DNA of 64,000 nt, taken from positions 3,008 through 67,007 of the IMG/VR virus record IMGVR_UViG_3300031669_000012, one strand, 5' to 3'. Positions 44,001 to 62,543 of the stretch are shown here, one piece after another; within the stretch, counting starts at the first letter, position 1; each line of letters begins with the position of its first letter. A program made the translations under genes and the position numbers. Source of the stretch: a virus. Below the pieces are notes generated by a model. It saw only the letters and a program-made list of their open reading frames with translations, did no database searches and had not been told where the DNA came from.

Positions 44001-47000
44001 TTCAGGAGCAATCATGACTAAGATTGCAAAAGATACAATATTTCTTTTAGATCTTGCTAACACTGCATTGAAAACATTTAGAAGCACGTCTGAAATAGAA
44101 GTTATAAATGTTGATTCTGAAGAACAAGCTTTATTAAACGATTTGATAAATGCATTTCAACCTTTTCTTGAAAAACCTTCATTGGATATTGAAGACAAAG
44201 ACCTTCAAGAATGGAAAAACGATGTTACTACAAATATAGAAAAATCTTTAAAGATTATACAATCTGCCATAAAATATATTGAATATCTTACAAAGAGTCC
44301 TATTAAAACTTTAACATATGATGATGTTCTTCAGTTAGTATATAACACTGTTCCAACAGATCAATTTCTAAATATAGCTAAAGCATTAAAACAAGTTTTC
44401 AATATTATTGAAACTTCTAAATCAAATACTCAATTATTTAAAACTCTTCCAAACGAGTTTAATAAAATCAATACTGAGGTAAAATATAATGTTGATGATA
44501 ATGATTTTATAAATACATGGAAAGATAAGAATGTTTATAAAGATACTCCTCAAGATATTGATTTTAGGGTTGAACATAAAAATGGAATGTCTGTATATTT
44601 GCATGATTTGAAGATACTAGATATTCCAGAAAATGGTCAAGTATCCGAAGAAGTTGCTAAACTATTATCAGAGTTTTATAGTTTGGTTGAAGGAAGTGAA
44701 TTAACATTGCAAATTGATAAAAATCATAAGGACGATAGATACACAGATAATGAAGCACGAAATGCTGATCCTACAAAAGTTCCAATTTCGATTATAACCA
44801 AAGGTGGAATTAGAATTGGATTTACAAATGAACAATATACTACTCATAGAAATATAAGTTATTTCAAAGAAAGTAAGAAAGGTAAAAAAACTGTAATGAC
44901 ATATCATTCTTTCATAGATGATCTAACAAATAAAGATTATGAATTGCTTGCTAATGATTCAGTTATGGCATTACTAAAAGATGTTTGGAGAAAAGAAGAT
45001 TATACTAATTATAATAAGTTATCTGAAAGCAACGCTTTGAAGCAATTAATTCGTAAGATGGTTTATACAAATAGAATTGATGATAATAAAGAAGTTACAG
45101 ATGAGCAAGTTAGACATGTAATATCTGCAATATTTTATAGAGTTAGTAATAGAGTTATTCAAGCATATCCTCCAACTCCTAAAATGCTTCAAGAGAAGTA
45201 TAATGCTTTAAACATTAGAATGAAACAAGATTTTCAATTAGTTAAAGAACTTAGAGAGAATTTTGCTAACAATGGAATTGAATCAATGCCTGTAAAGGTT
45301 ACAAATGTATCAACAGGACAACTTAAGTTTGGAAATGAATTTAAAAATATTACAGAACAAATTAAACCAATCAATGGTAAAATAACAATTGCACTTAGAG
45401 ATAAAACTAGAAATGGTAATCCTAATCAATTGTTCTTAGGTGGCATGGCTAATGAAGGAAGTCCTTTTACAGAAAATAGACCTATTAAAATTGCAAATCA
45501 AAAGACAATTGAAATGGATAGTGGGTCTAAAATATCTACACACGCAGTAGCATTTGCAATTCTTGAAGCAAATAAAGGGTCTTATTATGCACATCCTATT
45601 TATCAATCAACTTTAAATAACAGTCAACATACTAAAGATAAAGATTATTCAAAAAAACTTATCAAGTATGTTTCTAAAAATATAGTAGAACTGCTTAATA
45701 GCAATGATACAGAAACTAGGAATAAGATTTGGGGTCAACTAGGAAAATATATTAGACTTTCAAATACTAGAAGTGCTACTGATTTTTCATTTGCATTCTT
45801 TTATAAACCTAAAAATACTGGAAAATCAAATTTAGTATTCAAAACAGTTGAGAATGTAGGTGGACAATATCTGACTACATTTTATAAAATTGAGAATAAT
45901 AATGATGGAACATACAATGTATCTTCTACAAATGCTTTAAATGCATTAGGAAAACCTAAGTTTCGTAGTGATAGGTTTAAAGTTGTAAATGAATCGGAAC
46001 TACAATCTGAAATTACAGATCCTGTTTCTAAATTACAAAGGTATGTAGGATTTCATAAAGTTAAAGATCAAGTAGGTGTTTCACTAAATCCTGCAGAAGA
46101 ATTTGTTGATGATGTGACTAACACAAAATATACAGCTACAAAAGATTATACAGCATATGAAAGATTTGTTTTAAATACTGGGGCTTATAATACGAATCTA
46201 AAAGCTATTAAACAAGGCACAAATGTAATTACATCCTTCTTCCCTAACGGCTCACCTAGTGCTACTTTATTTGTAGAAACAAGTAAAACTACTCCAATTG
46301 TAGAAGATAGAATGCCATCGGATAGGACTACAACTAAACCAGTAATTGAACCAGAACAAATCGTAAAAGAAACTAAGAAAGCTCCCGAAATTAAATCTAT
46401 GTCATTTGATGAATTTATATCAAGTCATAGTGATAGTGTTAAATTTGACAATCTAGCGTTCTTAAAAGATACGTTAAAAGCTTTAGGAATTGATCTTAAG
46501 GTTGATTTGAGAATAGGTGAAGAAAAGCAAGGAGATAATAGTTCAGTTCAAGCAAGTTATGCAAATGGTAAGATTTCAATATTTTCTTCATTTGTTTCTC
46601 TAGTTAAGAATGGAGAAGTTGTTTCAAAAACTCCTGAAGAAAGAGGATTGATAATAGCACATGAAATATTGCATAGTATTATAAATGAAAAGCTTAAAGC
46701 TATGACTCCTGAACAGAGAGTTAAATATAAAGAAGATGTTGAAACATATCTTAAAGATTTAGAATCAAAACTAGAGAATCCTGCATTGGCAGAAGGTGAT
46801 AAAGAACTTATAAAAAAATATATTGCTATATCTAGAACTGACAGTGATGAAGCATTTACATATGCTTTTGCAAATCGAAATGTAGCAAACATTCTTAATA
46901 AAATTGAAGGAGCAACTATTGAAAATAAGAAAACAAACTTCTTATTGAAATTAATAAATGTAGTATTGAATGCAATGGGAATAAACAAGAATAGTGAACT

Positions 47001-47253
47001 AATGACAGTTTACAACATTGCAAATAAATACTTTAATATGGAACAACAAGGAGAAGAAATTAAAACAACTACTCCAGAAGAAGTTGCACCAGTAGAACAA
47101 TCTACTAAAAAGGTCTTTAAAAAACGAAATAAAGATGCAACTGATGGTAAGATAAATATTGATCCTAATAAGTATTCTAGTGATATAGACTACAATAATT
47201 TGGCCGAATTGGTTACAAACTATACCACTGAAAATGGTTTGCATTTATGTTAA
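40999..47253 (+). CDS. Large virion cargo protein with TM-like N-terminal segments and C-terminal zincin domain
   Basis: ARARNQ...LAGNSL, hydrophobic segments, EGLSEG, SFFWGAFGG; long coiled coils; HEILH at 46660-46674 followed by DEAF. Confidence 0.8.
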   Translation: MPITNNNKANMNVPNLGANVPQGVKAGFAIGNNDSKQATTAGMELLAPQPYQVKDFRNYFDNTTPINFFNPDLMEEARARNQNGWALAGNSLAQTIGNDIIGGTVSGFGTLLDPRAWLTFFQSGSKAFEGNALTELGSWIQNETNNAFPIYQTQKTQQGFAPGDKTWWASMFPTVASTASALIPTMAVTKFAKYLGEAVGLAEKFSATGKLASEIIANAVMSRHIDGFQSATQTFQQQYQKYKNLGYTDEKAKEAAGDEASSAYRYSWLNLGFDIIQWKYLLGSKGILAGKIDKATAEAMLEKKLITPSGLSKILVNSEKAPSLTTTLIAEGLSEGFDESTMDFFQKEGIRSSHVIKKDGQDDNSTMPERFLHHMLTDRSTWDSFFWGAFGGLFMTGMHKVGDHFLNGNEEDQKNKRLALIMDRAANIRSNASTLSQYIKNGDTINGEVGVANIVSSILENSIQDGGQHAYNEMLKHMANLTPEEAAELGATPEEIAGAKLIHPEFEKAAKIYDAFHGKNYGEGDRGNLVTGLNVARLSYFSNKLGEIINRIKDDGSRQVELQNLKAKFNLPDDFDVAALADLNSPNHKEELMKAFGDVYKSSYIDGITQRNNIQSHIDEQESHIKMLKAMHEIALHNEEGAKDDIAKEELKRRRKAVETDIKQKTDLVSKYTDKLNETNKGLDEISKSIPKEELEKLENLSQAVDMNEQNTGNRTRIHLENLKAQTDEELNGWLDKDKRKTKLKDIFDEIDTKAAQEEKDIKEKISKASPEELTAFKSQNNGKYDPDVRAREKALEELEKNRTEKLSQLNDRVDALDLSKMNISDSSKLAEAQEEVKKNLKDTMLYNIDSNITDKFFNNAVTKETRLVEEKYNKPEKSTNQSEEIITKTKTSKKSIKAIIEELKEDPSKFNRELERYTKIVDYVNDAMKSPTIPAEEKQLLQEVMNRLNQIKEDMEQVSNLIQRNDMSPEEEKFIAKTISFNNKYSKILNDSVSITETPGSGAIMTKIAKDTIFLLDLANTALKTFRSTSEIEVINVDSEEQALLNDLINAFQPFLEKPSLDIEDKDLQEWKNDVTTNIEKSLKIIQSAIKYIEYLTKSPIKTLTYDDVLQLVYNTVPTDQFLNIAKALKQVFNIIETSKSNTQLFKTLPNEFNKINTEVKYNVDDNDFINTWKDKNVYKDTPQDIDFRVEHKNGMSVYLHDLKILDIPENGQVSEEVAKLLSEFYSLVEGSELTLQIDKNHKDDRYTDNEARNADPTKVPISIITKGGIRIGFTNEQYTTHRNISYFKESKKGKKTVMTYHSFIDDLTNKDYELLANDSVMALLKDVWRKEDYTNYNKLSESNALKQLIRKMVYTNRIDDNKEVTDEQVRHVISAIFYRVSNRVIQAYPPTPKMLQEKYNALNIRMKQDFQLVKELRENFANNGIESMPVKVTNVSTGQLKFGNEFKNITEQIKPINGKITIALRDKTRNGNPNQLFLGGMANEGSPFTENRPIKIANQKTIEMDSGSKISTHAVAFAILEANKGSYYAHPIYQSTLNNSQHTKDKDYSKKLIKYVSKNIVELLNSNDTETRNKIWGQLGKYIRLSNTRSATDFSFAFFYKPKNTGKSNLVFKTVENVGGQYLTTFYKIENNNDGTYNVSSTNALNALGKPKFRSDRFKVVNESELQSEITDPVSKLQRYVGFHKVKDQVGVSLNPAEEFVDDVTNTKYTATKDYTAYERFVLNTGAYNTNLKAIKQGTNVITSFFPNGSPSATLFVETSKTTPIVEDRMPSDRTTTKPVIEPEQIVKETKKAPEIKSMSFDEFISSHSDSVKFDNLAFLKDTLKALGIDLKVDLRIGEEKQGDNSSVQASYANGKISIFSSFVSLVKNGEVVSKTPEERGLIIAHEILHSIINEKLKAMTPEQRVKYKEDVETYLKDLESKLENPALAEGDKELIKKYIAISRTDSDEAFTYAFANRNVANILNKIEGATIENKKTNFLLKLINVVLNAMGINKNSELMTVYNIANKYFNMEQQGEEIKTTTPEEVAPVEQSTKKVFKKRNKDATDGKINIDPNKYSSDIDYNNLAELVTNYTTENGLHLC

Positions 47254-47283
47254 GGAGTAGGGCAAAACCGCCCTATTCTTTAC
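47254..47283 (+). terminator. Hairpin, possible weak terminator/attenuator before the vRNAP
   Basis: GAGTAGGGC-AAAACC-GCCCTATTC followed by a short TTT. Confidence 0.5.
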
Positions 47284-47345
47284 ATATCTCAAACCAGCCT
47301 TTGTAGTTATACCTTTTTAAATTTTAATTCAAACAATCGAAGCAA

Positions 47346-50300
47346 ATGAAGTGTGAAATTATACCACAAGTCAGGAATTTACAAGATGAATTAGTAGATA
47401 GTAATCTTTTTGCAAATCTTCTCAAATCAAATGATAGAGAAACTGCTAAAGAACTATATGCTTATGTTCATTCTCCTAAATTTAAAGAGACTTATGGGGA
47501 TTGGGAATTGAAGAAAAACATTCAATTAAATAGATACACAGACGACGAATCTGCTGTTTTTCTATCTAGATATAATGGTAACTTAGACAATATTAAATTG
47601 AAGATTGATATAGATGAGAATGGAGAACCTATTTTCAATAATGAAGATTTATCAAATTCTCAACATAATGAGAAAGAAATAAATTCTATATTTGAACAAA
47701 ATCTAGAATTATCTGATATAGGTTCACAAGAACAATATTCTGAATATCTTAATACTATATTTCCTAATAGTAAAGTAAAAGATATTTTATATCATGGGAG
47801 TAATACTAGTAATTTAGAAAGTTTAGATCCATCTAAAGCTGGAACACTATTACATTCTTCTATGGGTAAAGGGGTCTATATTTCTAATAATAAAAATGTG
47901 GCAGATAGGTATAAAGGTAAAATACCGATATCTCAAATGAATGAGATATTAAAAAATAACCCAGAATATAAAGGAGACTTTTCTGAATTTGCCGAAGGTC
48001 AAACTTATGCATTATTAATAAACGCTGAGAATTTAAATACAGACTATACCAAAGTTAATGATCCTAATGTATTTGTATCTTATATAGAACCTATTAATAG
48101 TGCTACAGGTAAAACAATGCAATCTGAATACATTGTAAAAGATTCATCTAAAATTCATATATTAGGTTCTAAACAAGACATAAAAGGGTTTAAAGAGTGG
48201 ATAAAAAATAATATAGATAATACTTCATTTTTACCTATTTTCAATAATGATGTTAGAGAAGATATTTCTAATAATAATGTTGGATTATCTAAAGAACAAA
48301 TAGTAAAAGAAAAAGAAGCACAAAGAATATTAAACTATCTTTCTAAAAAATATATGATAGATGGCGCTTTGACTTCTATGGGAGAATTTAGTAGTTATGG
48401 AAGATTTGATAGAACTAGATTAAAAATACTTATAAACAGAGATACAACTCTTGATGACTCTGGAAATTTAGGATTTAAAAATTTAAACAATATTAAAAGG
48501 TCTTCTATATTTCATGAGTATCTTCATCCATTTGTAGAAATACTTGAAAAAGCCAATCCTGAATTATATGAAGAACTACATAAAAGTGCAGAAGTATTAA
48601 ATAAAGAACAACCTTTTGCTGAGATAAATCACTATGATGCAACTCAACAAAAAGAAGAATTGATAGTAAGATATTTAGATAGATTGTCTAAAGATGATGG
48701 TGCTCCAACATTACTTCAGAAGTTTATAACTTGGTTATCATCATTCATACATTCAAAAAGAATCAATGATAAAGAAACATTACAGAATCTATCAAAAGAT
48801 ACAACTGTTGAACAATTGTATAATATTTTTAAAAATTATGGAAATCTTAAAGATGAAATTACTAAAGTTATAGAGCAAGATTCTTTGAAGAAAGAATTGG
48901 AATTAAATAAAAAATTATTGAATATTGCTATTGAAGAAAAACTTCCTAATGAAAATATTCAAAATTATAAAGATGAAATAGAAAAATTAGAAAGTTTGAT
49001 TAATAGATATGATAAATCCAATGTTCAATACAAATTGAAGGCTGTAAATATTCTTCAATCAGATGCAGCTAAACAAGTGTTTGCTAAAGGAAATAAAAAT
49101 GGTTGGGATTTAAATAAGATATTAACTGAACTTCAGATACCTAAAGAACAAAAACAATTAGTTATAGATAGTTATAATGAAGGTAATAAAACTCCTGAAC
49201 AATTAGCTATTGATATTGCTAGTAAATATGGATACAATGTTGAAGTTAATACAGCTAAAAATGTAACTAAACAGTTTGGAGCTTTTGAACAAGAACCTGG
49301 AATACCAATGGAAGCTATTATGCAATCTAGGTATTCTACAGAAAGTGAAAAAGGAAATCCAACTTCTTATTATGCAAATCTAACAGTGCCAGGTGGTATT
49401 AACTATACCGAGAATGAAATATCTACTCCATTAATTACACCAAGTATTAAAGGACATGCTCAATTTGCTACTGATAAGGGTATAGGTTGGTTTAGAAGTG
49501 ATGAACAAAATTACAAAGGAGAAGCAGATGTAATATTACCAATAGGAACAAGTGGTAGTGGTAAATCTACATTTATAAAAACCTTACCTCAAGAAAATTT
49601 AGTAGTTATAGAACCTGATGTTATGAGAGTAGAATTTACAGGGGATGTAAATGATAAATCTAAAGATAAAGAAATATATGAAGAAGCTGCTAAAAGAGCT
49701 ATAACTGCAATTAAGCGAGGTAAACAAGTTGTATTTGATACCACTAATTTAACAAAAAATAAAAGAACACCTTTCATTAATGCTATTAAAAAGGCTTTAC
49801 CTACTGCTAATATACAGTATAAGTTAATGGAGTTAAATCCAGAATTAGCTAAACAAAGAATTAAAGCACAAATAGCAAAAGGTGAAAATAGGGCTAATGT
49901 GCCTGATAGCACAATAGATAGACACGCTGAATCTTATAAGCAAATGCTTGAAGATATCAAAAGTGAGCCTATTAGTGAATATAAAGATAAACAACCTACT
50001 AAAACTCGTAGAATACTAGAACTACAATCTGATTTATTTCAGAAAGGTAGAGATAAAAATAAACTTGCTGGTATAGGAGAAGATGAAAGTTTTCTAAAAC
50101 CCATTAAAGGCACAGAGGATGAACTTGGTATCCCTGATTTTGAAAAAGATACAGATTTAATTAGGCAAAACCAATTCCTACAACTACTAAACAAAGACAA
50201 CAACTGGGTAACATTCTTTATTAAATCTATCATTCAAGATAGTGCTAAAAAAGGATATGAGAAGGTATTATTTCCTACAGGTGAAACTGCTGCTAAAGTA

Positions 50301-53300
50301 GAGGGGCATGAAACTATTGCTAATGAGATAGAAAAAAAGAATAAAGAATTAGATAAATGGAATGATACTAGTTATGTAATATCTCATGATTTAGAAGACA
50401 AAACTAAATTTGATTGGTGGGATAAAGAAGGTGATAATATGACCTATCATTATTATAAATTAAATGATAAATATTATAAATCAGGAACATTAATTAGTAA
50501 AGATGAATTTGAAAATAAATACAATGAGTTATTACAAAATGATAAAGATAAATTTGAAAATAATAAACAAGAAAATATAGATAGAATAACTAAAGAAAAA
50601 CAAGAACTTAAATCACAAGGAATAGAAAAACTTAAACCTATTGAAGCATTCTATGAAATTAAAGTAGGTAATATATTAGAAAAACAATTTGGTAAAGATA
50701 ATATAAAGACTATTACTGATGAATATGGTAATCAATGGCGAGAAATTACTTTAGATAAAAATAGAGATTTAGAAGATATTATGTTTCCAAAAAATAGTGA
50801 AGATATTTCATCTAATTCACTTCCTTATACACCTGATTATAAATTTCATCAACATGAAATAAATCATACTAATAAATTAATATCTCGTATTGCAATTGAT
50901 ATTCTACCTGAATTAAAGAATCTTAAAGTTGAAGATTTGGCTAATAATATTTCAGTTAAGAATTCAATTATAAGTGCTCTGCAAACAATTTTAAATAGTA
51001 AGATTGACAATAATTCTATTACTAACAGTCAGTTAGAATTTGTAAATAAAGTAATAGATGATCTTAAAATGAAAGATAGCGAGATTTATAACAATTTCAA
51101 ATTATATTTCAATTCAAATTACAATATTAAAATTAATGATCTTGAAGATCTTACTGATGAAAATGGGAATGTTACAGATGAAATAACTAAGGCTTGGGCA
51201 GATGAAGGTCAATTAGAAGAAAATCTTATGGATAAAGTTTCTAACTTTATTAAATTTAAGATTGCTAATTTAAGAAATGTTCCATCTGAATTAAGTGGAA
51301 TCAGTGATGGTGTGGATATAAATGAAATTTGGAGTGTTCTTCAAACAGTTCATGCGAATGATATTACTCCTGAGGATTATATGGATACTTTAGATGTGAT
51401 ATCTAAATTGAATGAGACACTGATTCCTTTGAAATCTCTTATCTTAAGTGATGAGATATTTAAGAATGCTTATATTTCAACATTCAAGAAATCTATAAAT
51501 GAAACTTTTGCTATAACATTTGAAAGCGAAAATAAGAAAATTCTTGCTGACTACGCTATTCAAAATAGAAATAGTTTCCCTAGCAATGTATTGTACGATA
51601 AGTATCTTTATTCACTTAAATATTTTACTCAACATGGCGATACTGCTAAGTTCAATACAATATTGAAACAGATTAAAGATAGAATTAAGAATGATAATAG
51701 TAAGATAACTTCATTAGAAGCAAGTCGTTTGCTTGAAGCAATGGGTATAAATATTCCTGCTATTGGATTAGATATCATAAATGAATACAAACTTAAGTTT
51801 TTAAATTCAAATATCGAACAATTAAAATCTACAATTGGAGTGGATACTACTCCTGCAGAATTAAATAAAATAAATAAAGACATTGAAGATCTTCAATATC
51901 AAAAGGAAAATGCTAGATTCTTAAATATAGCAAATCCTATTGTAAAACTTGCTGAGAATATTTCAGAAATGATTAAGGATGAAAAAGTTAAATTTGATTC
52001 AAGAGGAGATTTAAGAAAAATTGCAACAATATCTTCGATTGTAAATAGTCATAAAGGAGATTTCTCATTCCTTGATGTGAATGGTAATAAACGTTTTAGT
52101 GTTGATTATCCAAGTTTTATAACTGATATGTTTAAAGAAGCATCTGCTTCTACACTTGGAATACAACAAGCGTTTGGTAAATATATTGAAATATCTAAAA
52201 ATAAATATTCAAATTGGTTAGTAAATACTGCTGGTAAAAATACTCCAAATGGAATATTTAATCTTGATGAAACAGGGCAAATTAATAAATTGAATCCTGT
52301 AAATGTATCATTCTTTTCTAATAAGTTTGCAATATCATTCTTTAATGGTATTAAGAATCTTACAGAAGAGAAAGGTTCTACTTATGACGAGATGGTTCAA
52401 GGTCTTTGGGATTATGCTACAATAGTATCATTTTTAACTGGAGATTATAATAGTAAAGGTGAACAAGAAACTGCTTATTACAGAATTCCTTCATCGGATA
52501 GTCCTAGAATGCTTACAATTAAAGCTCCTGTGTTTACTGTTACAGATTTAATAAAATATGATACTAATTTTAAAGTAGTAGGACTTAATAAAGAACATTC
52601 TACATTTCAAACATTGAGAAATACAATGCTTCAGGAATTAGAAGAAGCATATGTTGCGAGAGATGCAATTTACGATCCTATTTTAAAAGATGGTAGAATT
52701 ATAGGTTTTAAACCTAAAGAATTATATGATGCATCTAATCCAGAGAATGCTCTTCATACATTACACGATGTTAAACATTGTAAATTAAATGGAGAAGAAA
52801 TTCAAATATTAGATAATAATAAAATGCCAATTGGTAGAGTTTATAAAATGACAAATTTATCTTATAAGGTAGATGGTAAAGAATATACTTTTGAAGATTA
52901 TCTTAAAGAGAAATATAAAACTTTAAATCTACTCACATATAATAATTTTGAAGAAGCTAAAGCATCTTTAAAAACATCTATGGATGAATTTATTGATACA
53001 ACTATTACTAAACGTATTAATGACAATACTAATAATTTTGAATCATTACGAGAAATAATTGGTAACACTTCATTACGTGTTCCCGGTAGGAAAAGAGAAA
53101 GTAAATCTATAATTAATTCTGATAAGGATTTTAATGATATTGTTGCTAAATTTACAGTTAATGATTATTTAGCAATGGTAGAAATAAATAATATGTTTCT
53201 TGGTAATAATTCCGAATATGGTTCTTCTGATAAATGGAACAAACGTGTTGGACAAGGAATTAAAAAAGGGCAACAATTAAATTCAGATAGACTTTTCAAT

Positions 53301-56300
53301 GCATTAACTGTAAATGATATATTTTACGATAGTCCTATCTTCAAACAAATTGAAGAAGTATCTGGTAAAACTGTTGCCAATATGTTTAAACATATCGATG
53401 CAAGTGATGCTTTTTCATATATTACAATTGAAGAATATGAACATCGTTTAAGAGAAGCAGGTATAATTGAATCATACAAACCTATACTTGAAGCATTAAA
53501 GAATAGAGATGTTGCTTTCAATCCTGCACTTTATAATAAGTTTTTAGAATCTTTGAAATTCTTTTATTATGATAGAGATGTAAAAGAACTACCATATAAA
53601 CAAATGGTTAGTGTTCAGCAAAAGAATTCAACTATGGTTCTTGCTCCTGCATTAATAAAGAATACAGATCTTGAAAACTTATATAATGATATGAAATTAA
53701 ATAATGTTGATCAAATAAACTTTAAATCTGCTGAAAAAGTAGGTGGAACTGTTCCAGTTGATATATTTAAAAATGGTAAATATGTTCCATTAAGTTCTAG
53801 TATTGTTGAACAAGAAGTAATTCCTTCTAAAGTTAGTGGTTTGAAATTACAATTGGAAGTTAAACCTCATCTTATGGATGAAGTAAATAAACTTGCAATT
53901 CAACTTTCTAAATCTATTTTTACAAATGTTCAACTTGAAAATGAAATTTATAAAATAGGAGACGAAACTGTTTCAGGACAAAAGTTGTTCGATGATTATA
54001 ATAAGATTCTTGCAACAAATATTAAAGAAAGTGCTTTAGGACTTTTAAAGAGTTGGGGAGCAGTTCAAAATGGAGAAATTAGAAGTGATGAAAATGGAAA
54101 TATAATTGTAGATATCACTAAAATATCTAAACAACTTCTTCAATATGTAATGAATGAGTCTTTAGATAATAATGCTTTAGCAGCTGTTAAGATGACAGAC
54201 ACAGGTGAATCTGCAATGCCTATTTATGCACCAATTCATTATAAGAAATTCTCATCAATTCTATTAAGTAAGATTACTAAAAATATAATTGAACAAAAAC
54301 TTCCTGGATTTCATAGTCCTATTGTTCCTAATGTTTTATTCAATCCTTCTAATGTTTCAAGTGACAGTAAGATGGATATGAAAGAACTGGTTGAAAAAGG
54401 ACAAATAACTTATTTAAATTCTGTTAAGGAAGATATAATTGCAGGTAAAAGAACTTCTAATCTTAAATATGAGATAGTTGAAAAAGAAGATGGTAAGCAT
54501 CTTGAAGTTGAATGTGTTGTTAATCCTTGGGATTCTAAGTTCATAAAATATGATGAAAAGCATAATCCGATTGGATATATGGATATTAATGATATTCCTG
54601 AAGAGGCGCTTCATTTATTAGGCATTCGTATTCCTGTTGAGGGAAAACAATCAATGGTATATTTTAAAGTTGTAGGTTTTCTAAATAGTGGTGCTACTCA
54701 AATTGTATTTCCTTCAGAACTTATAACTCAAACTGGATGGGATTTTGATATTGATAGTTTGTTCGCTTATACTAAAAATCTTGAGTTCAATAAAGATGGA
54801 AAACTTCAAGTTGTAAAATATTCAAATGACAATGAAGAATTATTCAATGCTTGGAAAAGAGATAGACTTGCAACTAATCTTGCGTCTCTGACAGATAATG
54901 ATCGTGCAGAAATACACAATCTTAAAAATATTGCTGGGGATATTCGTGAGGGTATGGATAGTATATTTAAAACTGAAATACAATCTCATCATGCAAATCT
55001 TGAAGGGATGTTTAAATTTCAGAATGATTATATTGAAACAGTTTTAAATGATCTTAAAGATGAATTTGAAATTGAAAGATCTAGTAAAACTTCTGATCCT
55101 GATGCAATGACTATTGATGATACTAAAATTCATGATTTGGTAGATCTTAAGAATCAACTTCTTAAATTTGCAGATAATTATGATATCGATGCTAGTTTTG
55201 GAAAATATATTGATGGAGTTAGATTGGAAATTCAAAACTTCAATAATAAAATCAATAGTGACACTGAAAATATAAAGAAATCTTATGATGATTTAAATAA
55301 TCTTAAAATAGGAAAACAATCTATAGAAGCTCGAATTGATAAACTTTATCATAAAATATTTGATAACCTTAGCTTTGAAGAAAAACATACGCTTGCTAGT
55401 AGACAAAATAGAATCGTTGATACATTCACTTCAATTCTTAATAATCCTGCACATCTTGCAGAGAAAATTAAGCCTAATGAAATGCAACATAGTATTAACG
55501 CTGCTAATCTTGTAAATGAATTATATCAAACTGGTGCAAAAGGACTTAATCCTAACTTCTATGAAGATTATAATCTTTTTAGAAATATCAATATGTCTAT
55601 TAGAGCACTTAAAGGTAATTCTGTTGGATGGGATTCTATTATGTCAATTATGGGAGTTCTTGGAGTTAAATTTAGAGAAGGTTCTTCTGTTAAATTTAAA
55701 CTACATGAAAGTTATCTTCCTAAGAATTTTAAAATTGAAGATGCTAAATCAAAAGTTTTAAATGTCACTAAGAAAGGTGGATTTTATACATTTGATATAA
55801 ATACTTTGTTTAACAATGAATCTAAAACTTGGACAGATATTTTAGATGAAAATATCACAACTCAATATTCTGAAACAACTTCTCATATTTTAGATGCTGT
55901 TACAAAACTATTAGGATTCAATCTTAATATTCATACTTTACCAGTATACAAACTTATATCATCTCTTCCTTTTAATTCTCAATATGAATTTAACGGAGTT
56001 AGAGAAAATAATAGATTCGTTGTTCCTAATTTATTAATTCACCAGCCTATAATATTAGAATATGTTAAAGGAATTATTGATAAAAATATTACAACCAGTG
56101 TTAATAAGAAATCGATTCAACAAGATATAATGAATGACTACATTGCTAGAATGCTGGTTCAAATGAGACCTATTTTAGACAACGCAGTTGTAAATTTGAA
56201 ATCGAAATATAATAAAGACACCTATAAATATAGTGCTAGTCCAGATGATCTAAGATCTATAATGAAAACTATATATTATAATATAGAGGCTCATGGTGGA

Positions 56301-59300
56301 TATTCTAGTTTTTCAAATGGTATTTTAACAACTAGAGTTGCTACATTACTTCAAGTATATTCTGATTATACTGAACATGAAATAGAATTGGGAACGAATC
56401 CTATAATTCCAGATATTGGGGAAATGATACAAAGTATTAAAGATAGAAGTTCATTTGTAAATGTTATAAATTCGTCATATGTTCCTAAACTTAATTCTGA
56501 GCAATCTATAACTGGTAAAGATGTTCAAAGTATTGATTTACAACGTGAAGGAATTAAAACTGCATTGATTCAAAGAGATAAACCTAAATATAAAGAAGGT
56601 GATAATGTAACGTTTGGAAATGATAATATTATATATCATATTGATTCAATGACAAGAACTAGTTTGAGTTCTAAAACTTCAGAAGAAACTTTATCTAAAA
56701 TTGCTACTGCTGAAGGAACAAATCTTACATTTTTAAAGAAAAGAGTTGACTCAGGTTCTATGGAAAATGGTGTTTATTTTGTTAAATTCCATAAAACTGA
56801 TATGACTACAGCAAACAAAGATGCAATAAATTATTTAGCAACACAACTTCAAACATTGCACACATATTCCTATTTAGATGGTATTGCTCAAGGTGTGATT
56901 GCTTACAGTGCAATATTAAATGCAGATAAAAAGAAAGTTGGACCAGATACAAGTATTTCTGATCTAAACGAATATAGAATGAGAAATATACTTGTAGATA
57001 AAGCTAATCTTAAAGAACATCTTCTTAAAAATGGGTATAAAACAAATCAAATAAATGAAATAAATAGAGTATTAGATTCTCTTCCAACTAATGAAATGAT
57101 TCCTTTTCTTGAAAATGAAGTTGGATATTCTGCTCCATCAATTCTTACATTGGATGATCATAGTTTAATTGAATCTGTATACGAAGCTTTTAATACTGAA
57201 GAATCTAAATATCCTATATTGAATGCATTTTATGAAAATGGACAAAGGCTTAGTCAAAAGTTAATGGCTAATCTAAGTATTTATGACAATGATAAATTTA
57301 AAGAATTTAAAAATAGCTATTTAGTAGGGATTTCAAATAATACTCAATTGACTGACACAAATGAGAGAATAAATAATTTCTTTATAAACTTCATGTTAAG
57401 AGATTTAAATCTATTTACATATGATAATGAAAATTCATTTGAATTAAATAAGGATGTTGCTACAAAACAATTGAGAACTAGAATTAATTCTTTTAATAGT
57501 TCGTATGAAGATAATCATAAAACTTTAGAATTGACTCCTGAGAATTTTGAAGCATTTCAACAACTAACTCTTTCAAATAAGATTAGATTGATTCAAGACA
57601 ATCCTGTATATAAAGAGTATTTTAATAATCCTACATTTGAAAATAATCATATATTGAACGTTTTGAATATTCAAGATGATAAAGATATAATAGAATCTAA
57701 AGGTAGAATCTTTATAAAAATTGGTGATACAAGTGATGCAAATATGACTTCTTTCTCAATGAAAGATATGTATTTTAAAGATCCATTTCTTAGAGATATA
57801 GTTACGGATTTAACTAGATATGCTTATTTCAATTTTGGATTAAGTTTTGGAAACAATCTTTCTAAATTTATTCCTGTTGAATTACTTACAAATCCTAAAT
57901 CTAATTTAGGAGAATATGGAGATGCATTGAAAGGTGTTAAAAGTCAAATATTTTCACAAATGTTTGATCCTGATTTTAAACAACTTCTACACCAATCCAA
58001 CATAGATAATACAAATATAAATCCAATTGCTTATAGTCCAACAAAAGTTATTCCGGGTAATGTATATGCTAAATTTAAATTAGTAAAAGCTGCAATTCCT
58101 TTAGGAGATACACATCTTATATTTGAAACAAATGAAAGCCTTGCATTCCATAATTTAGCAATGAAAGATTATATTGTAAAACTCATTGGAGAAGATAAAG
58201 TTCTATTTAAGAAGATGGCAATGAGATTAGAAAATGGTGATAATCTCTATGTATATTATCCTATTGAAAGTCATGATATGTATGAATTTACTGATGCAGC
58301 AAACAATAGGAATAGAAGATATAAAGAAGGAGCAAGTGAATTTGTTATAGCTCCTGAAGAATTTTATAAAGGAATGCAAGAAATGTATGATCCTTCTGTA
58401 TTATTGCAAATATACAATGATACAAATAATATTAAAGTTGAAACAAATATGGATACCCCTGAAAAGAATTCTGTAGATTTGGAAACTCATAAAGACGAAT
58501 CTACATCTACATGGAGTAATAAATTTAAAGAAGAAGGTAGACAAGTATTCTATATCTATAATGAAAATAAAGATTTTTCATTAAATATTCTAAAAAACAG
58601 CAATGAAGTAGGGGAGATACGTGCAACAGATTATAACGATATTGTTTCTAATTTGAATATTAATAGTAATAAAATTGTATTAAGTTTTGGACAAGACTTT
58701 AAAAATAAAGATGCAGCTGTAACAGCAATTGCTTTTATACATAGTATGTATCCTGAAGTAAATGTAGGAATTTTAAATAACTCAAATTTGACTAGTGAAA
58801 TAGTTAATGAAAAAGTTAATAGTTTAAACGTATTTAATTCTAATACACTTGGAAGATCAATAGAGCAATATAGTGAGGACTTAGGTTTCGATGTATCTAC
58901 AAAATTAGATATTCATAATGCTAGTGAAACAATGCTGGGAATGCTTGAAAACAATCTCAGATTAAAAAATATGTTTCAAAATAGAAAACTTACTTTTGCT
59001 AAAGAATTGAATACACTTGATGATAAAATTATTAAGAGTAAAATTGGTGAGGAACTCAATAAAGATAATATATCTTCTATATTGGAAGGTATGGATATGG
59101 AGATAGGAATATTTACACATATTAATAAAACACTTTCTACAATTGGAAGTGAGTTTAAAGGTATCAATACCGATGAATTATATAAAAAGGGTGAAGAATC
59201 TAAAGTTGAATTTGTAAGTAGATTAAAAGAAGCACAAGCAATAAGTAGTATGTATGATTATATTGATAGACTTGATAAAATATCTTTAAGTAGTGCTAGA

Positions 59301-62300
59301 GAAGAAGATAGTTCAACTATCGAAATGATAAATAGCAGAATTGCTAAATTGAAGGAGATGAAAGAAGAGAGTGCAAGAGATAGAAAACAAGTTAAAGAAG
59401 CTGTAGATACATATCTTGCAACTATAATTTATAATACTAGTAGAAATAGTAAATCTTTTAATACTGCTTTTGAAAAGGCAAGAGAAGGAATAGATACAAG
59501 CATAACTAAAGAAGAGTTAGCAGAGAATATGATAAAGATGTTAAGAAATAATGAAGATATTAGTGGAGCTATGTTATGGTTTGATAGTTCATTTAATACA
59601 GGTATCGCAATGGTAGATAATACCATGCTTGAATATTTTAAATACATGGGTGCTAGAGATGAAATGCGTGATTCAATGATAGATGATGTTAATGAACTTA
59701 TGAAGAAGTTGACTCCGGGAGTTGAAAATGTATTAAGTCATCACAATAAAGCTAAAAGAACTTCAAACTTTACTACTACAATGTTTGATAGTAAAAATGG
59801 AACATTGATATCTAAATTTAAATGGGAAGATTATAGACAAGCAGAAAGAGAAGCATTGAAAGCATTTTCTGAATCTATGAAAAGAATAGATGCTTTAACT
59901 ATTGAAAATGATAATCTTCTCAAATCTGTAGACCCTATGGAAGAATCTGAAGAAAATACAACAATTAATAAAAGAAGTAGTGATCTTGTTAAACAAATGG
60001 AAGTCATAAGAAGAAATGCACAACAGAACCTTAAAAAGTTTTATAATGAAAATAGAAGTCAAGAATCATTGACAACTGAAGAAGCTACTGAATTAGATTC
60101 TCTTCTTGCAAATAATAGTCCTAAAATTGTCAATAAATGGTTGAACAATCATCATGTTAAAGAATATAAGGGAAAATATTATAAAATTATTCCATCTGAT
60201 AAATATCTGAATGAAGATTATGCTAAGATGAAAGATAGTGATAAAGAGATATTGGATGGAATTAAAAATGTTATTGCCAAGATAACAAAGACTTGTTATG
60301 GATTTGAAGTTAGTGATGATTTCTTTCCAATTAATTTAAGTCAAACTGCTACTAGTGCAATAAAACAAGTTGTTGGATATAGACGAATTTATGAAACTCA
60401 AAAAGAATTAGGATTAAACGATGAAGAATATTTCAAGCATGAATTCCCAATGTTTAATTATGTTGAGTTTCATCCTATATATAAAATAAGGCCTAGACGA
60501 ATAGGTGAAGATTTCGAAGAATATGAAGATAAGGTTGTAAAATCAATTAACTACAAACATAAACTTAAAGGTGAACAAGCCTTTACTTCATTAGAAGAAA
60601 TACGAACTGCAAATTTAAAGAATTCAGATTTGAATAAGAGAGATACAGTTGAGAATATGACTGCTGATCCATATGAAGCTTTAAAACTATTCATATATCA
60701 GAGTGCTAATTTTAAACATACTGTTGATTTTGAAACTTTGTTTGGACTTCTTTTAGATAGAGTTAAGAGTGATGATTTCTCAACAACTCAAACAAGAATG
60801 AAGGGGACAGGAGTTGTAAATACACTTGGAAGTTTATTGAAAGGAGAACGAGATTATAAAACTGTAAAAGGACAAGATACAAATGTAGCAAAACGTTTGG
60901 AAACATTCTTATCAACTCTTAATGGAGAACATAATGTTAGAAATAGAGTTGAACAAGTTTTAGCAATTGCTAAACAATATACTTCTCTCACATACATGTC
61001 TTTAAATGTTACAGGTGCTATTAAAAACATAGGTCAAGGTTATATGAATATAATGCAAGAAGCATTTGCAAAAGAATTTATATCTCATAAAGATATTGGA
61101 TGGGCAATAAAAAATTATAATATTACAAAGATAGTTGCTTCATTAGGTGAAGAATATTCGGATGATATAAATACAGCCATTATGAAACGTTTTGGTAATA
61201 TGTTGGAGTTGAAAAATGAAAACGGTTTTGAAACTAATATTGCTGAAAACAATGCTCATAGAATTCTAATGTCTGTAAATGCGATGTATTTTCTTAATAG
61301 TGCTGGTGAACATTTTATGCAATTTACTACACTACTTGCTGCAATGAGATCACATAGAGTTCTAAATGGAGTATTTGTTAACTTCAATGAATTTTATAAT
61401 GACAAACGTAAACAAGTTTTAGGAACAATTTTAAATAAAGAACAGAAAGAATCTTTAGATAAATATCTTGATTATATGAATAAGAATAATCCTAGACATA
61501 GTGATAATCCTGACTTCATTGCAAGATGGATGACTAATAATAATTTGACAGATGTTCAGAAAACTGAATATATTCAAAAGATTAAAGAAGCTGAAAAAGC
61601 TGCAAGAGAAGAATTTGATAAACTTGAAACAGTATATGATCAATACGAATTGAAAGATGGTAGAGCAGTTATAAAAGAAGGAAGTAAATTTACTGATGAT
61701 CAATCTGTTATGTTTGAAAGACGTGTTCAACAGTTAAATCATAGTATTCATGGTATTTATAATCAAATTGATAGATCTAAATTACGTAATAGCCTTTTAG
61801 GAGATATGGCAATGCAATTTAGAGCATGGATAAGACCTAACTTTGTTAGATATTTTGGGCAAAGGTGGGGAAGAAGTGTTTATAATGAAGCATTGGGAAG
61901 TTTTAGAAAAGGTGCATGGAATAGTATGCAGGATTTTATAACATCTCCATTTAAAATGGCTAAATACAATAGTAGAGAACTAACAAGTAAACAAGCTTTT
62001 GTAAATATTATGAAAGCTTATGGTGAATTCTTTGCTAATCTTAGATTTAATTATAGAGCAATGAATATTCAAGATAGACAAAATATTCGTAGGAATATGG
62101 GTAACTTTATAAATATTGCAATGTCTATTGCAGGACTTCTATTACTAAATGCATTATCAGATGATGATGAAAAAGACAATCCTTACATGTTGTCATTTGC
62201 ATTATATGAATTGAATGCTTTATATAATGAACATACTGAATTACTACCCGGTATAGGTTGGTATAAAAGTATTATACAAGCTAAACAATATCTTACTCCT

Positions 62301-62543
62301 AGTGAAAGAATTGTAGATGATACTTTTTCAATTCTATATACTCTTACAACATATCCTTTCTTAAATCCTGAAGATAGAGTTTTCAGTAATGGAATGTATA
62401 ACGGTGAAGATAAACTTAAAATCGCTATAATGAAGAACACTCCTTTGTTTAGACAGTATCATAAGATGATGTATATTCCTTTATATAACAATTGGTATAA
62501 AGCCTATAATCCAATTTATATTTCCTCTAGTAAAAAAAATTAG
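47346..62543 (+). CDS. Giant virion-packaged DNA-dependent RNA polymerase polyprotein (5065 aa) with accessory domains
   Basis: Catalytic DFDID at 54741-54755 (aa 2466-2470), GIRIPVEGKQS, SAEKVG, KLPGFH; crAss-type C-terminal region. The N-terminus has ART-like, HExxH and Walker A domains. Confidence 0.92.
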   Translation: MKCEIIPQVRNLQDELVDSNLFANLLKSNDRETAKELYAYVHSPKFKETYGDWELKKNIQLNRYTDDESAVFLSRYNGNLDNIKLKIDIDENGEPIFNNEDLSNSQHNEKEINSIFEQNLELSDIGSQEQYSEYLNTIFPNSKVKDILYHGSNTSNLESLDPSKAGTLLHSSMGKGVYISNNKNVADRYKGKIPISQMNEILKNNPEYKGDFSEFAEGQTYALLINAENLNTDYTKVNDPNVFVSYIEPINSATGKTMQSEYIVKDSSKIHILGSKQDIKGFKEWIKNNIDNTSFLPIFNNDVREDISNNNVGLSKEQIVKEKEAQRILNYLSKKYMIDGALTSMGEFSSYGRFDRTRLKILINRDTTLDDSGNLGFKNLNNIKRSSIFHEYLHPFVEILEKANPELYEELHKSAEVLNKEQPFAEINHYDATQQKEELIVRYLDRLSKDDGAPTLLQKFITWLSSFIHSKRINDKETLQNLSKDTTVEQLYNIFKNYGNLKDEITKVIEQDSLKKELELNKKLLNIAIEEKLPNENIQNYKDEIEKLESLINRYDKSNVQYKLKAVNILQSDAAKQVFAKGNKNGWDLNKILTELQIPKEQKQLVIDSYNEGNKTPEQLAIDIASKYGYNVEVNTAKNVTKQFGAFEQEPGIPMEAIMQSRYSTESEKGNPTSYYANLTVPGGINYTENEISTPLITPSIKGHAQFATDKGIGWFRSDEQNYKGEADVILPIGTSGSGKSTFIKTLPQENLVVIEPDVMRVEFTGDVNDKSKDKEIYEEAAKRAITAIKRGKQVVFDTTNLTKNKRTPFINAIKKALPTANIQYKLMELNPELAKQRIKAQIAKGENRANVPDSTIDRHAESYKQMLEDIKSEPISEYKDKQPTKTRRILELQSDLFQKGRDKNKLAGIGEDESFLKPIKGTEDELGIPDFEKDTDLIRQNQFLQLLNKDNNWVTFFIKSIIQDSAKKGYEKVLFPTGETAAKVEGHETIANEIEKKNKELDKWNDTSYVISHDLEDKTKFDWWDKEGDNMTYHYYKLNDKYYKSGTLISKDEFENKYNELLQNDKDKFENNKQENIDRITKEKQELKSQGIEKLKPIEAFYEIKVGNILEKQFGKDNIKTITDEYGNQWREITLDKNRDLEDIMFPKNSEDISSNSLPYTPDYKFHQHEINHTNKLISRIAIDILPELKNLKVEDLANNISVKNSIISALQTILNSKIDNNSITNSQLEFVNKVIDDLKMKDSEIYNNFKLYFNSNYNIKINDLEDLTDENGNVTDEITKAWADEGQLEENLMDKVSNFIKFKIANLRNVPSELSGISDGVDINEIWSVLQTVHANDITPEDYMDTLDVISKLNETLIPLKSLILSDEIFKNAYISTFKKSINETFAITFESENKKILADYAIQNRNSFPSNVLYDKYLYSLKYFTQHGDTAKFNTILKQIKDRIKNDNSKITSLEASRLLEAMGINIPAIGLDIINEYKLKFLNSNIEQLKSTIGVDTTPAELNKINKDIEDLQYQKENARFLNIANPIVKLAENISEMIKDEKVKFDSRGDLRKIATISSIVNSHKGDFSFLDVNGNKRFSVDYPSFITDMFKEASASTLGIQQAFGKYIEISKNKYSNWLVNTAGKNTPNGIFNLDETGQINKLNPVNVSFFSNKFAISFFNGIKNLTEEKGSTYDEMVQGLWDYATIVSFLTGDYNSKGEQETAYYRIPSSDSPRMLTIKAPVFTVTDLIKYDTNFKVVGLNKEHSTFQTLRNTMLQELEEAYVARDAIYDPILKDGRIIGFKPKELYDASNPENALHTLHDVKHCKLNGEEIQILDNNKMPIGRVYKMTNLSYKVDGKEYTFEDYLKEKYKTLNLLTYNNFEEAKASLKTSMDEFIDTTITKRINDNTNNFESLREIIGNTSLRVPGRKRESKSIINSDKDFNDIVAKFTVNDYLAMVEINNMFLGNNSEYGSSDKWNKRVGQGIKKGQQLNSDRLFNALTVNDIFYDSPIFKQIEEVSGKTVANMFKHIDASDAFSYITIEEYEHRLREAGIIESYKPILEALKNRDVAFNPALYNKFLESLKFFYYDRDVKELPYKQMVSVQQKNSTMVLAPALIKNTDLENLYNDMKLNNVDQINFKSAEKVGGTVPVDIFKNGKYVPLSSSIVEQEVIPSKVSGLKLQLEVKPHLMDEVNKLAIQLSKSIFTNVQLENEIYKIGDETVSGQKLFDDYNKILATNIKESALGLLKSWGAVQNGEIRSDENGNIIVDITKISKQLLQYVMNESLDNNALAAVKMTDTGESAMPIYAPIHYKKFSSILLSKITKNIIEQKLPGFHSPIVPNVLFNPSNVSSDSKMDMKELVEKGQITYLNSVKEDIIAGKRTSNLKYEIVEKEDGKHLEVECVVNPWDSKFIKYDEKHNPIGYMDINDIPEEALHLLGIRIPVEGKQSMVYFKVVGFLNSGATQIVFPSELITQTGWDFDIDSLFAYTKNLEFNKDGKLQVVKYSNDNEELFNAWKRDRLATNLASLTDNDRAEIHNLKNIAGDIREGMDSIFKTEIQSHHANLEGMFKFQNDYIETVLNDLKDEFEIERSSKTSDPDAMTIDDTKIHDLVDLKNQLLKFADNYDIDASFGKYIDGVRLEIQNFNNKINSDTENIKKSYDDLNNLKIGKQSIEARIDKLYHKIFDNLSFEEKHTLASRQNRIVDTFTSILNNPAHLAEKIKPNEMQHSINAANLVNELYQTGAKGLNPNFYEDYNLFRNINMSIRALKGNSVGWDSIMSIMGVLGVKFREGSSVKFKLHESYLPKNFKIEDAKSKVLNVTKKGGFYTFDINTLFNNESKTWTDILDENITTQYSETTSHILDAVTKLLGFNLNIHTLPVYKLISSLPFNSQYEFNGVRENNRFVVPNLLIHQPIILEYVKGIIDKNITTSVNKKSIQQDIMNDYIARMLVQMRPILDNAVVNLKSKYNKDTYKYSASPDDLRSIMKTIYYNIEAHGGYSSFSNGILTTRVATLLQVYSDYTEHEIELGTNPIIPDIGEMIQSIKDRSSFVNVINSSYVPKLNSEQSITGKDVQSIDLQREGIKTALIQRDKPKYKEGDNVTFGNDNIIYHIDSMTRTSLSSKTSEETLSKIATAEGTNLTFLKKRVDSGSMENGVYFVKFHKTDMTTANKDAINYLATQLQTLHTYSYLDGIAQGVIAYSAILNADKKKVGPDTSISDLNEYRMRNILVDKANLKEHLLKNGYKTNQINEINRVLDSLPTNEMIPFLENEVGYSAPSILTLDDHSLIESVYEAFNTEESKYPILNAFYENGQRLSQKLMANLSIYDNDKFKEFKNSYLVGISNNTQLTDTNERINNFFINFMLRDLNLFTYDNENSFELNKDVATKQLRTRINSFNSSYEDNHKTLELTPENFEAFQQLTLSNKIRLIQDNPVYKEYFNNPTFENNHILNVLNIQDDKDIIESKGRIFIKIGDTSDANMTSFSMKDMYFKDPFLRDIVTDLTRYAYFNFGLSFGNNLSKFIPVELLTNPKSNLGEYGDALKGVKSQIFSQMFDPDFKQLLHQSNIDNTNINPIAYSPTKVIPGNVYAKFKLVKAAIPLGDTHLIFETNESLAFHNLAMKDYIVKLIGEDKVLFKKMAMRLENGDNLYVYYPIESHDMYEFTDAANNRNRRYKEGASEFVIAPEEFYKGMQEMYDPSVLLQIYNDTNNIKVETNMDTPEKNSVDLETHKDESTSTWSNKFKEEGRQVFYIYNENKDFSLNILKNSNEVGEIRATDYNDIVSNLNINSNKIVLSFGQDFKNKDAAVTAIAFIHSMYPEVNVGILNNSNLTSEIVNEKVNSLNVFNSNTLGRSIEQYSEDLGFDVSTKLDIHNASETMLGMLENNLRLKNMFQNRKLTFAKELNTLDDKIIKSKIGEELNKDNISSILEGMDMEIGIFTHINKTLSTIGSEFKGINTDELYKKGEESKVEFVSRLKEAQAISSMYDYIDRLDKISLSSAREEDSSTIEMINSRIAKLKEMKEESARDRKQVKEAVDTYLATIIYNTSRNSKSFNTAFEKAREGIDTSITKEELAENMIKMLRNNEDISGAMLWFDSSFNTGIAMVDNTMLEYFKYMGARDEMRDSMIDDVNELMKKLTPGVENVLSHHNKAKRTSNFTTTMFDSKNGTLISKFKWEDYRQAEREALKAFSESMKRIDALTIENDNLLKSVDPMEESEENTTINKRSSDLVKQMEVIRRNAQQNLKKFYNENRSQESLTTEEATELDSLLANNSPKIVNKWLNNHHVKEYKGKYYKIIPSDKYLNEDYAKMKDSDKEILDGIKNVIAKITKTCYGFEVSDDFFPINLSQTATSAIKQVVGYRRIYETQKELGLNDEEYFKHEFPMFNYVEFHPIYKIRPRRIGEDFEEYEDKVVKSINYKHKLKGEQAFTSLEEIRTANLKNSDLNKRDTVENMTADPYEALKLFIYQSANFKHTVDFETLFGLLLDRVKSDDFSTTQTRMKGTGVVNTLGSLLKGERDYKTVKGQDTNVAKRLETFLSTLNGEHNVRNRVEQVLAIAKQYTSLTYMSLNVTGAIKNIGQGYMNIMQEAFAKEFISHKDIGWAIKNYNITKIVASLGEEYSDDINTAIMKRFGNMLELKNENGFETNIAENNAHRILMSVNAMYFLNSAGEHFMQFTTLLAAMRSHRVLNGVFVNFNEFYNDKRKQVLGTILNKEQKESLDKYLDYMNKNNPRHSDNPDFIARWMTNNNLTDVQKTEYIQKIKEAEKAAREEFDKLETVYDQYELKDGRAVIKEGSKFTDDQSVMFERRVQQLNHSIHGIYNQIDRSKLRNSLLGDMAMQFRAWIRPNFVRYFGQRWGRSVYNEALGSFRKGAWNSMQDFITSPFKMAKYNSRELTSKQAFVNIMKAYGEFFANLRFNYRAMNIQDRQNIRRNMGNFINIAMSIAGLLLLNALSDDDEKDNPYMLSFALYELNALYNEHTELLPGIGWYKSIIQAKQYLTPSERIVDDTFSILYTLTTYPFLNPEDRVFSNGMYNGEDKLKIAIMKNTPLFRQYHKMMYIPLYNNWYKAYNPIYISSSKKN
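47628..48250 (+). repeat. Exact 17-bp in-frame direct repeat flanking the ART-like domain
   Basis: CCTATTTTCAATAATGA at 47628-47644 and 48234-48250; offset 606 nt = 202 codons. Confidence 0.85.

Follow-up and report, generated by a model that had tools for sequence, protein, structure and literature searches.

How does a giant phage protein come to carry an enzymatic module that near-identical phages do without? A 64,000-nt stretch of virus DNA raises this question (positions 3,008 to 67,007 of IMG/VR record IMGVR_UViG_3300031669_000012; we call this whole stretch the window and use its numbering throughout). The 29% GC sequence holds an open reading frame (ORF) of 5065 codons at 47346-62543, on the plus strand like all features described here unless stated otherwise, and this ORF appears to encode a crAss-like virion RNA polymerase with effector modules at its N-terminus. 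Close to its start, an exact direct repeat of 18 nt, ACCTATTTTCAATAATGA, stands at 47627-47644 and again at 48233-48250, with a spacing of 606 nt. Both copies lie in the frame of the ORF and read P-I-F-N-N-E/D (aa 95-100 and 297-302). The 606-nt segment that ends with the second copy (47645-48250, 202 codons), hereafter the cassette, is present or absent as a unit in metagenome contigs from natural populations. In our view it is, fairly probably, a dispensable effector module of the ART-PolyVal type (ART, ADP-ribosyltransferase) that was stacked into a variable slot and can be excised through the repeat.

A sequence-only reading of the window had singled out a 17-mer at these places, in frame and 606 nt apart, as the border of a swappable domain; its positions are correct, and the true exact match is one letter longer. 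The genome-wide search that it called for finds the 17-mer at these two places only, both in the 64-kb window and in the whole 85,238-base virus record, and the 18-mer is the longest exact direct repeat of the window. Taken alone, the repeat is only moderately unusual. What shows that it matters is a natural deletion allele with its junction exactly at the repeat.

Module-bearing and module-less phages coexist

We placed the contigs of four public sequencing runs on window positions 46900-49300. X1 is a soil run and probably the source sample of the record, X2 a soil run under another study code, and X3 a sludge run. Parts of the region that X3 and a fourth run, X4, leave uncovered were not counted as absence, and only a contig that diverges after 47644 was used from them.

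In X2, one 632-nt contig consists of 47258-47626 followed directly by 48233-48495, so that exactly 606 nt are skipped; 18 nt at the junction fit both sides and one repeat copy is kept. This junction contig has a depth of 5.8, compared with 1-2.7 for the contigs of the cassette. X1 presents the same event as a fork: its contigs end at 47644 and restart at 48233, the cassette sits on a contig of its own (47615-48262), and a 12-nt loose end ahead of 48233 is identical to letters 47615-47626, which lie to the left of copy 1. With the 31-nt word of the assembler, this pattern is the exact mark of a true two-way branch, which an 18-nt repeat cannot produce. With the cassette at a depth of 102 and its flanks at 157 and 162, about one third of the X1 population lacks the cassette. 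A G>A single-nucleotide polymorphism (SNP) at 49230 has a depth of 51/149, a minor share equal to that of the ART-less allele, which suggests two co-existing haplotypes at about 2:1. At 47588 and 47610 the ART-less contig of X2 has letters other than those of the window, and X1 is without those differences; the junction is therefore found on two or more backgrounds that differ slightly.

Phages that bear the module and phages from which it is exactly excised coexist in nature, with the frame and one repeat copy kept. This is the allele that the sequence-only reading had proposed to look for, with one 17-mer, no ART domain and a 606-nt deletion junction: contigs of two metagenomes contain it, and since the junction is in frame, removal of the domain leaves the long frame intact, as had been proposed. 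A run search with the cassette only recovered near-identical copies from X1 (share 1.00) and X2 (0.23), the other rows having tiny shares. Neither the empty junction nor the leader end plus 18-mer had an exact-pattern match in IMG/VR, JGI metagenomes or GTDB genomes, which does not imply absence there.

Two further repeats lie in the same region. ATATTTCTAATAATAA, 16 nt, exact and in frame, occurs at 47878-47893 and 48262-48277, 384 nt apart; the first copy belongs to the ART motif GVYISNNK and the second follows repeat copy 2 after 11 nt, and the match extends by a few bases if a 3-nt gap is allowed. None of the metagenome contigs compared has a deletion junction between the two. The 10-mer AGAACCTATT (..EPI..) of the leader end, at 47624-47633, recurs within the ART module at 48086-48095, probably by chance.

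The cassette encodes an ART-PolyVal-type module

What is gained or lost with these 606 nt? The module core spans aa 109-286 (47670-48203) and lies within aa 101-296, so that, as first noted, the two copies bracket a single domain with little around it. It comprises a short helical pre-domain and a predicted ART fold in which H150 and Y178 are kept. Against Pfam, aa 101-296 match PF18760 with 21.2 bits (E 5e-4), over profile positions 8-45 of 140 only. BLAST matches of aa 109-294 to modules of other proteins (P0008, P0012, P0014, P0016, P0019 and P0020; P numbers denote relatives) are at 28-38% identity, and these homologous modules also sit in proteins of 3-5 thousand residues. They share a conserved start, ..ELFExNPELAxIGTxEQYSxYLxTIFPxSKVKDIVYHGS, and a conserved end, IHILGSKQDIxGFKxF. 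Nine of the 12 aligned homologous modules match PF18760, down to E 4.7e-18. A profile built from the aligned modules retrieves 837 proteins, most of them recorded with PF18760; many among the best-scoring relatives listed are free-standing proteins of about 190 aa.

The predicted structure points the same way. An AlphaFold2 model from a 55-sequence alignment reached a pLDDT of 82.7; a model from only 12 sequences (pLDDT 51) was not used. All top Foldseek matches of the model are to the catalytic domains of tankyrase and PARP-1 and to a RES toxin (probability 0.9-1.0, E 3e-3, TM about 0.4), and VIA-align superposes it on tankyrase/PARP catalytic domains with Z 8.2 and an rmsd of 4.8 over 129 residues, a middling Z. 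The structural match supports an ART fold, which it favours and does not prove. ART-PolyVal is defined by an H-Y-D site, with His in strand 1, Tyr in strand 2 and Asp in strand 5 (PMC5512222). In the alignment, 53 of 55 sequences have His in the column of H150, and 40 of 55 have Tyr in that of Y178. When solved structures were searched with a sequence profile, all matches were at chance level. Judged by family and model, the cassette thus encodes a putative ART-PolyVal-type module for which ADP-ribosyltransferase activity is predicted.

No close relatives, at DNA or protein level, were found in phage records, IMG/VR or JGI metagenomes, although near copies may be missing from the collections as searched, and no second copy of the cassette or of its 588-nt core at unrelated sites in any collection searched.

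A variable slot behind a conserved leader

The point at which the module sits coincides with a border in the protein. Ahead of it lies a conserved N-terminal leader, aa 1 to about 100 (47346-47644), which ends in ..DENGEP-IFNN and forms the N-terminus of about 29 representative proteins. In its alignment, conservation reaches (N/D)ExGEP and the sequences diverge straight after. The leader had no match in Pfam or PHROG. Its first 94 residues (47346-47626) form a family of their own that is always N-terminal, in giant or fragmentary phage proteins of 29 representative clusters. This leader may be a candidate packaging or ejection signal.

Behind the leader, relatives differ. Four (P0032, P0033, P0034 and P0038) have a canonical ART-PolyVal there; P0030, P0046 and the X2 allele have a zincin-like module, and further relatives carry modules without assignment. 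In P0022 (57% identity) and P0041, the leader is fused directly to what we call the 'ELQ' module, which here occupies aa 557-700 (49014-49445) and, by comparison with these two proteins and X3, starts the constant part past the slot. The gene of P0022 (locus L003) has an in-frame TAA after ..IPKEQK at 676-684, with the frame open beyond; coverage of the contig is very low, and a sequencing error or a recoded stop is possible.

The zincin-like module (aa 303-556, 48252-49013) is assigned by homology and by its HExxH motif, HEYLH at 48513-48527; it has no match in Pfam. In the ART-less allele this module comes first. In P0003-P0007 and P0009 it stands alone at other positions, with homology starting from query aa 301-319. 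ART and zincin-like modules occur independently of each other and at different positions in other giant proteins, and the edges of their homology fall at the two repeat copies. Low-depth contigs of X1 and X2 also join 48324 to 48956 through 40 other letters (net -591 nt, in frame), which would replace the core of the HEYLH module; the shorter side of this join has only 21 nt and the contigs may come from another phage.

The sludge run adds a third allele. An X3 contig follows the window over 46902-47644, with 7 differences in 743 nt, before it departs from it. Past 47644 its letters encode DVKEGVSELF, the canonical start of the ART-module family, so that this 99%-identical relative appears from its sequence to carry a different ART-type module directly behind the 18-mer. 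After its single 18-mer, 10 of 11 nt match the sequence that follows copy 2 in the window (48251-48261, encoding D-V-R-E), compared with 4 of 11 for the sequence that follows copy 1, and the match ends thereafter. In fact, copy 2 and its next 11 nt equal the X3 leader junction at 28 of 29 positions. Linked X3 homology to the window restarts at 49016, aa 557, with the first residues of the next constant module.

These comparisons point to a constant frame made of the leader and everything from the ELQ module onward, and to a variable slot, aa ~101-556, that would hold 0, 1 or 2 modules. We call it a variable effector slot because X3 and distant relatives place other modules, or none, behind the leader. 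The proposal that this is a plug-in site is borne out to that extent: the position behaves as a slot that carries different modules in relatives.

Repeats at the edges of related modules

If modules are stacked in this way, other members of the family might bear similar marks. We surveyed the flanks of related ART modules with a trimmed core profile, which gave 63 modules with flanks at the protein level. Four of the 63 share at least 5 aa in their flanks, where 0.18 are expected (p 6e-5). The in-frame repeats include 15 nt in P0018 (peptide ISFQNKS), 18 nt in P0020 and 8 aa in P0130; in P0020 the repeat goes on to about 17 aa (14 of 16 identical), as far as the first residues of a module start. 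An independent set of 62 modules from IMG/VR has longest flank repeats of 21, 19, 17 and 13 nt, all in frame; at the DNA level, 4/62 have at least 13 nt compared with 2/581 offset controls (p 1e-3). About 5% of related ART modules elsewhere have in-frame flanking repeats, and the generality of the pattern is suggestive only.

The empty junctions predicted for three of these loci (L007, L062 and L013) had no exact match in IMG/VR assemblies, which does not imply that they are absent. One case of the survey, L048, is a free-standing ART-module gene with an intergenic direct repeat of 27/28 nt at 1130-1160 and 1745-1775, possibly a repeated promoter or terminator, or the border of a gene cassette. 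Tandem ART modules also occur, at least three in P0008 (aa 1500-2170) and two in P0051.

How the two copies may have arisen

We infer that copy 1 (47627-47644) is the native leader end, as ENGEPI(F/V)N is kept there in P0022, and that copy 2 (48233-48250) is its duplicate behind the ART module. This arrangement could stem from unequal (illegitimate) recombination of two related phages whose shared leader was followed by different modules: it would have stacked the ART module ahead of the zincin-like module, with 18 nt from the end of the leader duplicated. The ART module would then be removed again when the copies recombine or when replication slips between them. Once in the host together with the polymerase, the ART may, to go by what is known of the family, ADP-ribosylate a host target in the manner of T4 Alt. 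That both alleles coexist suggests that the module is of benefit on some hosts and a burden on others. One could go further and envision that in-frame junction duplications are a general footprint of effector-domain gain by injected polyvalent proteins, that they make the domains removable, and that phages keep a standing mix of payloads behind one leader, as an on/off polymorphism that would persist because host defences or targets vary and would be more than a single chance mutation; as a general statement, we consider this rather doubtful.

A simpler history would need no insertion and no special site. The 18-mer could have arisen by chance in AT-rich, Asn-rich coding sequence and later guided a deletion by strand slippage or short homology. 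Losses of DNA between short direct repeats are classical mutations in phages. Close-repeat counts drop about 2.7-fold per extra base, and by extrapolation from shorter close repeats about 0.1 18-nt repeat within 1 kb is expected per window; codon shuffles of the ORF yield a close repeat of at least 18 nt in about 2% of trials. Four other 17-mers also recur somewhere in the window, the 16-nt in-frame repeat nearby marks the region as prone to repeats, and within this genome the sequences adjoining the two copies share no similarity past the 18 nt. Given the shuffles and the unrelated flanks, a chance repeat followed by deletion is possible, but on the whole we think it unlikely, for copy 2 mirrors a conserved leader end whose PIFNN is not found in the C-terminal linker of any other ART module among the relatives, copy 2 with its 11 nt matches the leader junction of X3, relatives carry different modules at exactly the same point, and other modules of the family have flank repeats too.

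Besides the figures that favour chance, several points weigh against a stacked and excisable effector module. The X3 case rests on 30 letters (of 37 beyond 47644) of one low-depth contig, and for X1 and X2 the data are assembled contigs from a k=31 graph, in which allele fractions are inferred from depth. The 49230 SNP is tied to the ART-less allele by depth alone. X1 and X2 are both 2019 soil runs and may belong to one campaign, and X1 may be the source sample. A donor of the ART module was not found in phage records, IMG/VR, JGI metagenomes or the run search. The PF18760 score of the module is below the gathering cut-off of 31.2 bits and is 16.5 bits in a 618-aa context, and the Asp column of the family (51/55) pairs with V244 in alignment A3 and with D238 in alignment A1. 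In the flank survey, two of the best cases, L062 and L013, are related to each other, and counting them once gives p = 0.016; T/Q/P/S-rich linker motifs make up several of the flank repeats, and a tail is present in the cross-locus null, 24/3000 at 13 nt or more. The event may have been an insertion or a deletion, and the ART-less phages of today could be survivors or revertants.

Two adjacent units with the same linker might also have stood here, the second of which was mostly deleted and left its first 18-29 nt as copy 2 and DVRE. Tandem ART-PolyVal arrays do exist in P0008 and P0051, and 12 ART copies are reported for one protein (Iyer et al. 2017, PMC5512222). The second copy in P0020 continues into the module start, and DVRE resembles the VKEG start in X3. 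Such a remnant would require two events and a leader end that belongs to the duplicated unit, and no trace of a second ART is seen beyond 11 nt; we regard it as improbable.

The direct repeats around a precisely present or absent insert would also suit a self-mobile element, be it a transposon, a homing element or a site-specific cassette, with the repeat as target-site duplication or attachment site. Yet the 606 nt encode an in-frame protein domain only: the sole ORF of at least 30 aa wholly inside is a 42-aa antisense frame (47884-48012), no transposase is found in the cassette and its ends have no convincing terminal inverted repeats. The 18-mer is peculiar to this genome, where it occurs only twice, and the flank repeats of relatives differ in sequence and in length (13 to at least 21 nt). 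A transposon-type target-site duplication, one of the footprints that the sequence-only reading had named, is thus unlikely, and the mobile-element explanation in general very improbable. The same reading had taken the Ile codons as a sign of recent acquisition. Its count is right, with ATA at 13/20 inside the cassette and 163/403 outside (p 0.04). The argument drawn from it fails: a bias to ATA, TTA and AAA is common to the neighbouring N-terminal modules, and the synonymous usage of the cassette is ordinary, at the 29th percentile of ORF windows. We therefore do not use codon usage as evidence of recent arrival.

Least credible of all is that the ART-less junction is an assembly or library artefact. 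The runs were seen as assembled contigs, and a short repeat can seed chimeras. However, an 18-nt repeat below the 31-nt word would not collapse without real junction-spanning reads, and the junction occurs in two runs under different study codes. In X2 it is the major form and is flanked on either side by over 250 nt; the depth missing in X1 (about 55/157) agrees with the fraction of the nearby SNP.

Known systems

Polyvalent proteins are giant multi-domain proteins, predicted to be co-injected with DNA, in which ART, zincin-like peptidase, kinase and RNA polymerase domains can occur together; ART-PolyVal is found in one or many copies and in many architectures, including fusions to N4-like virion RNA polymerase (PMC5512222). 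The protein described here likewise seems to unite a putative ART, a zincin-like module, a kinase-like domain and a polymerase in one polypeptide. The variety of polyvalent domains, ART-virion polymerase fusions and tandem ART arrays are thus known already from that work. There, however, architectures were compared across distant genomes, whereas here two alleles of one phage are one ART module apart and a third, near-identical relative appears to have another module, so that shuffling becomes visible at the population level, junctions included. The polymerase also appears to be of the crAss two-barrel type and not N4-like. A literature search found no description of an ART module or of a segregating domain insertion or deletion in a crAss-like polymerase.

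T4 Alt offers a likely mode of action. It is an ADP-ribosyltransferase packaged in the phage head and injected with the DNA, and it modifies host proteins (PMC5512222); delivery at injection is what we predict for the module as well. Unlike the module, Alt is a separate protein and belongs to the R-S-E clade, while the ART described here would be of the H-Y-D, PARP-like clade and is fused to a polymerase, with an activity that is putative.

The excision itself has a familiar look. In the classical T4 rII and T7 studies, DNA between short direct repeats was reportedly lost exactly, with one copy left, as in the ART-less allele. Here, unlike in those deletions, the repeats are codon-aligned at domain borders, and the shorter protein product is therefore predicted to work; both forms also persist in the wild at comparable abundance. 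A second parallel may be drawn with the swappable toxin tips of polymorphic toxin systems with orphan modules, such as contact-dependent inhibition (CDI) and Rhs proteins, which also combine a constant delivery part with an exchangeable effector whose identity is changed by recombination at a conserved junction sequence. In contrast to these systems, no silent array of spare cassettes was seen here and there is no immunity gene, the module is internal and near the N-terminus instead of being a C-terminal tip, and the carrier is a phage virion protein.

Polyvalent proteins are known for heavily shuffled domain orders, but the movement of their domains has so far been inferred from distant comparisons only. 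The locus is a real, population-level and base-exact case of effector-domain gain or loss on a phage protein that is predicted, by analogy, to be injected. It offers three natural alleles that are nearly identical and whose junctions are known to the base, including one at a codon-aligned 18-nt repeat, which makes the rate of excision measurable and would allow the two forms to compete on hosts. The ART-less allele could serve as a natural knockout for the role of an injected ART, with the essential polymerase intact. A single metagenome-assembled phage genome may in the same way hide payload variants present in about one third of its population.

The carrier protein and its genome

The ORF that carries the cassette was taken from the start for a crAss-type polymerase, and its features agree. 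The motif DFDID at aa 2466 (54741-54755) would be the catalytic motif of a two-barrel RNA polymerase; the DFDxD motif of crAss-like virion RNA polymerases is described in bioRxiv 10.1101/2020.03.07.982082. Residues 2201-3000 match the 'putative RNAP catalytic subunit' of Bacteroides phage crAss002 (tblastn, E 4e-34). A phmmer search of the polymerase core against PDB sequences gave no match to solved structures. The major capsid protein is 42% identical to that of crAss-like phage cr127_1, and terminase and portal PHROG families are present in the genome. Sequence comparison thus places the genome among crAss-like phages and, by DFDxD motif, polymerase similarity and genome type together, makes the giant ORF a probable crAss-like virion RNA polymerase.

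In size and motif the protein resembles the virion RNA polymerase gp66 of the crAss-like phage phi14:2 (bioRxiv 10.1101/2020.03.07.982082), a large protein packaged in the virion, as well as the giant proteins that crAss-like phages encode in their transcription block (PMC7886860); these too are large and have a DFDxD motif. It differs from them in its 5065 aa and in the roughly 1000 aa of effector-type modules ahead of the core. By analogy with phi14:2 gp66, we predict that the giant polymerase is packaged in the virion and injected.

With several unrelated enzymatic domains, the ORF is one of the polyvalent proteins as PMC5512222 describes them, here with a crAss-type virion polymerase as its base. 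Ahead of the polymerase core the order is ART module, HExxH module and AAA_33/polynucleotide-kinase-like domain. This last P-loop domain lies at 49530-49940 (aa ~729-865), with a Pfam E-value of 1e-17 and a match to the PHROG family 'polynucleotide kinase'.

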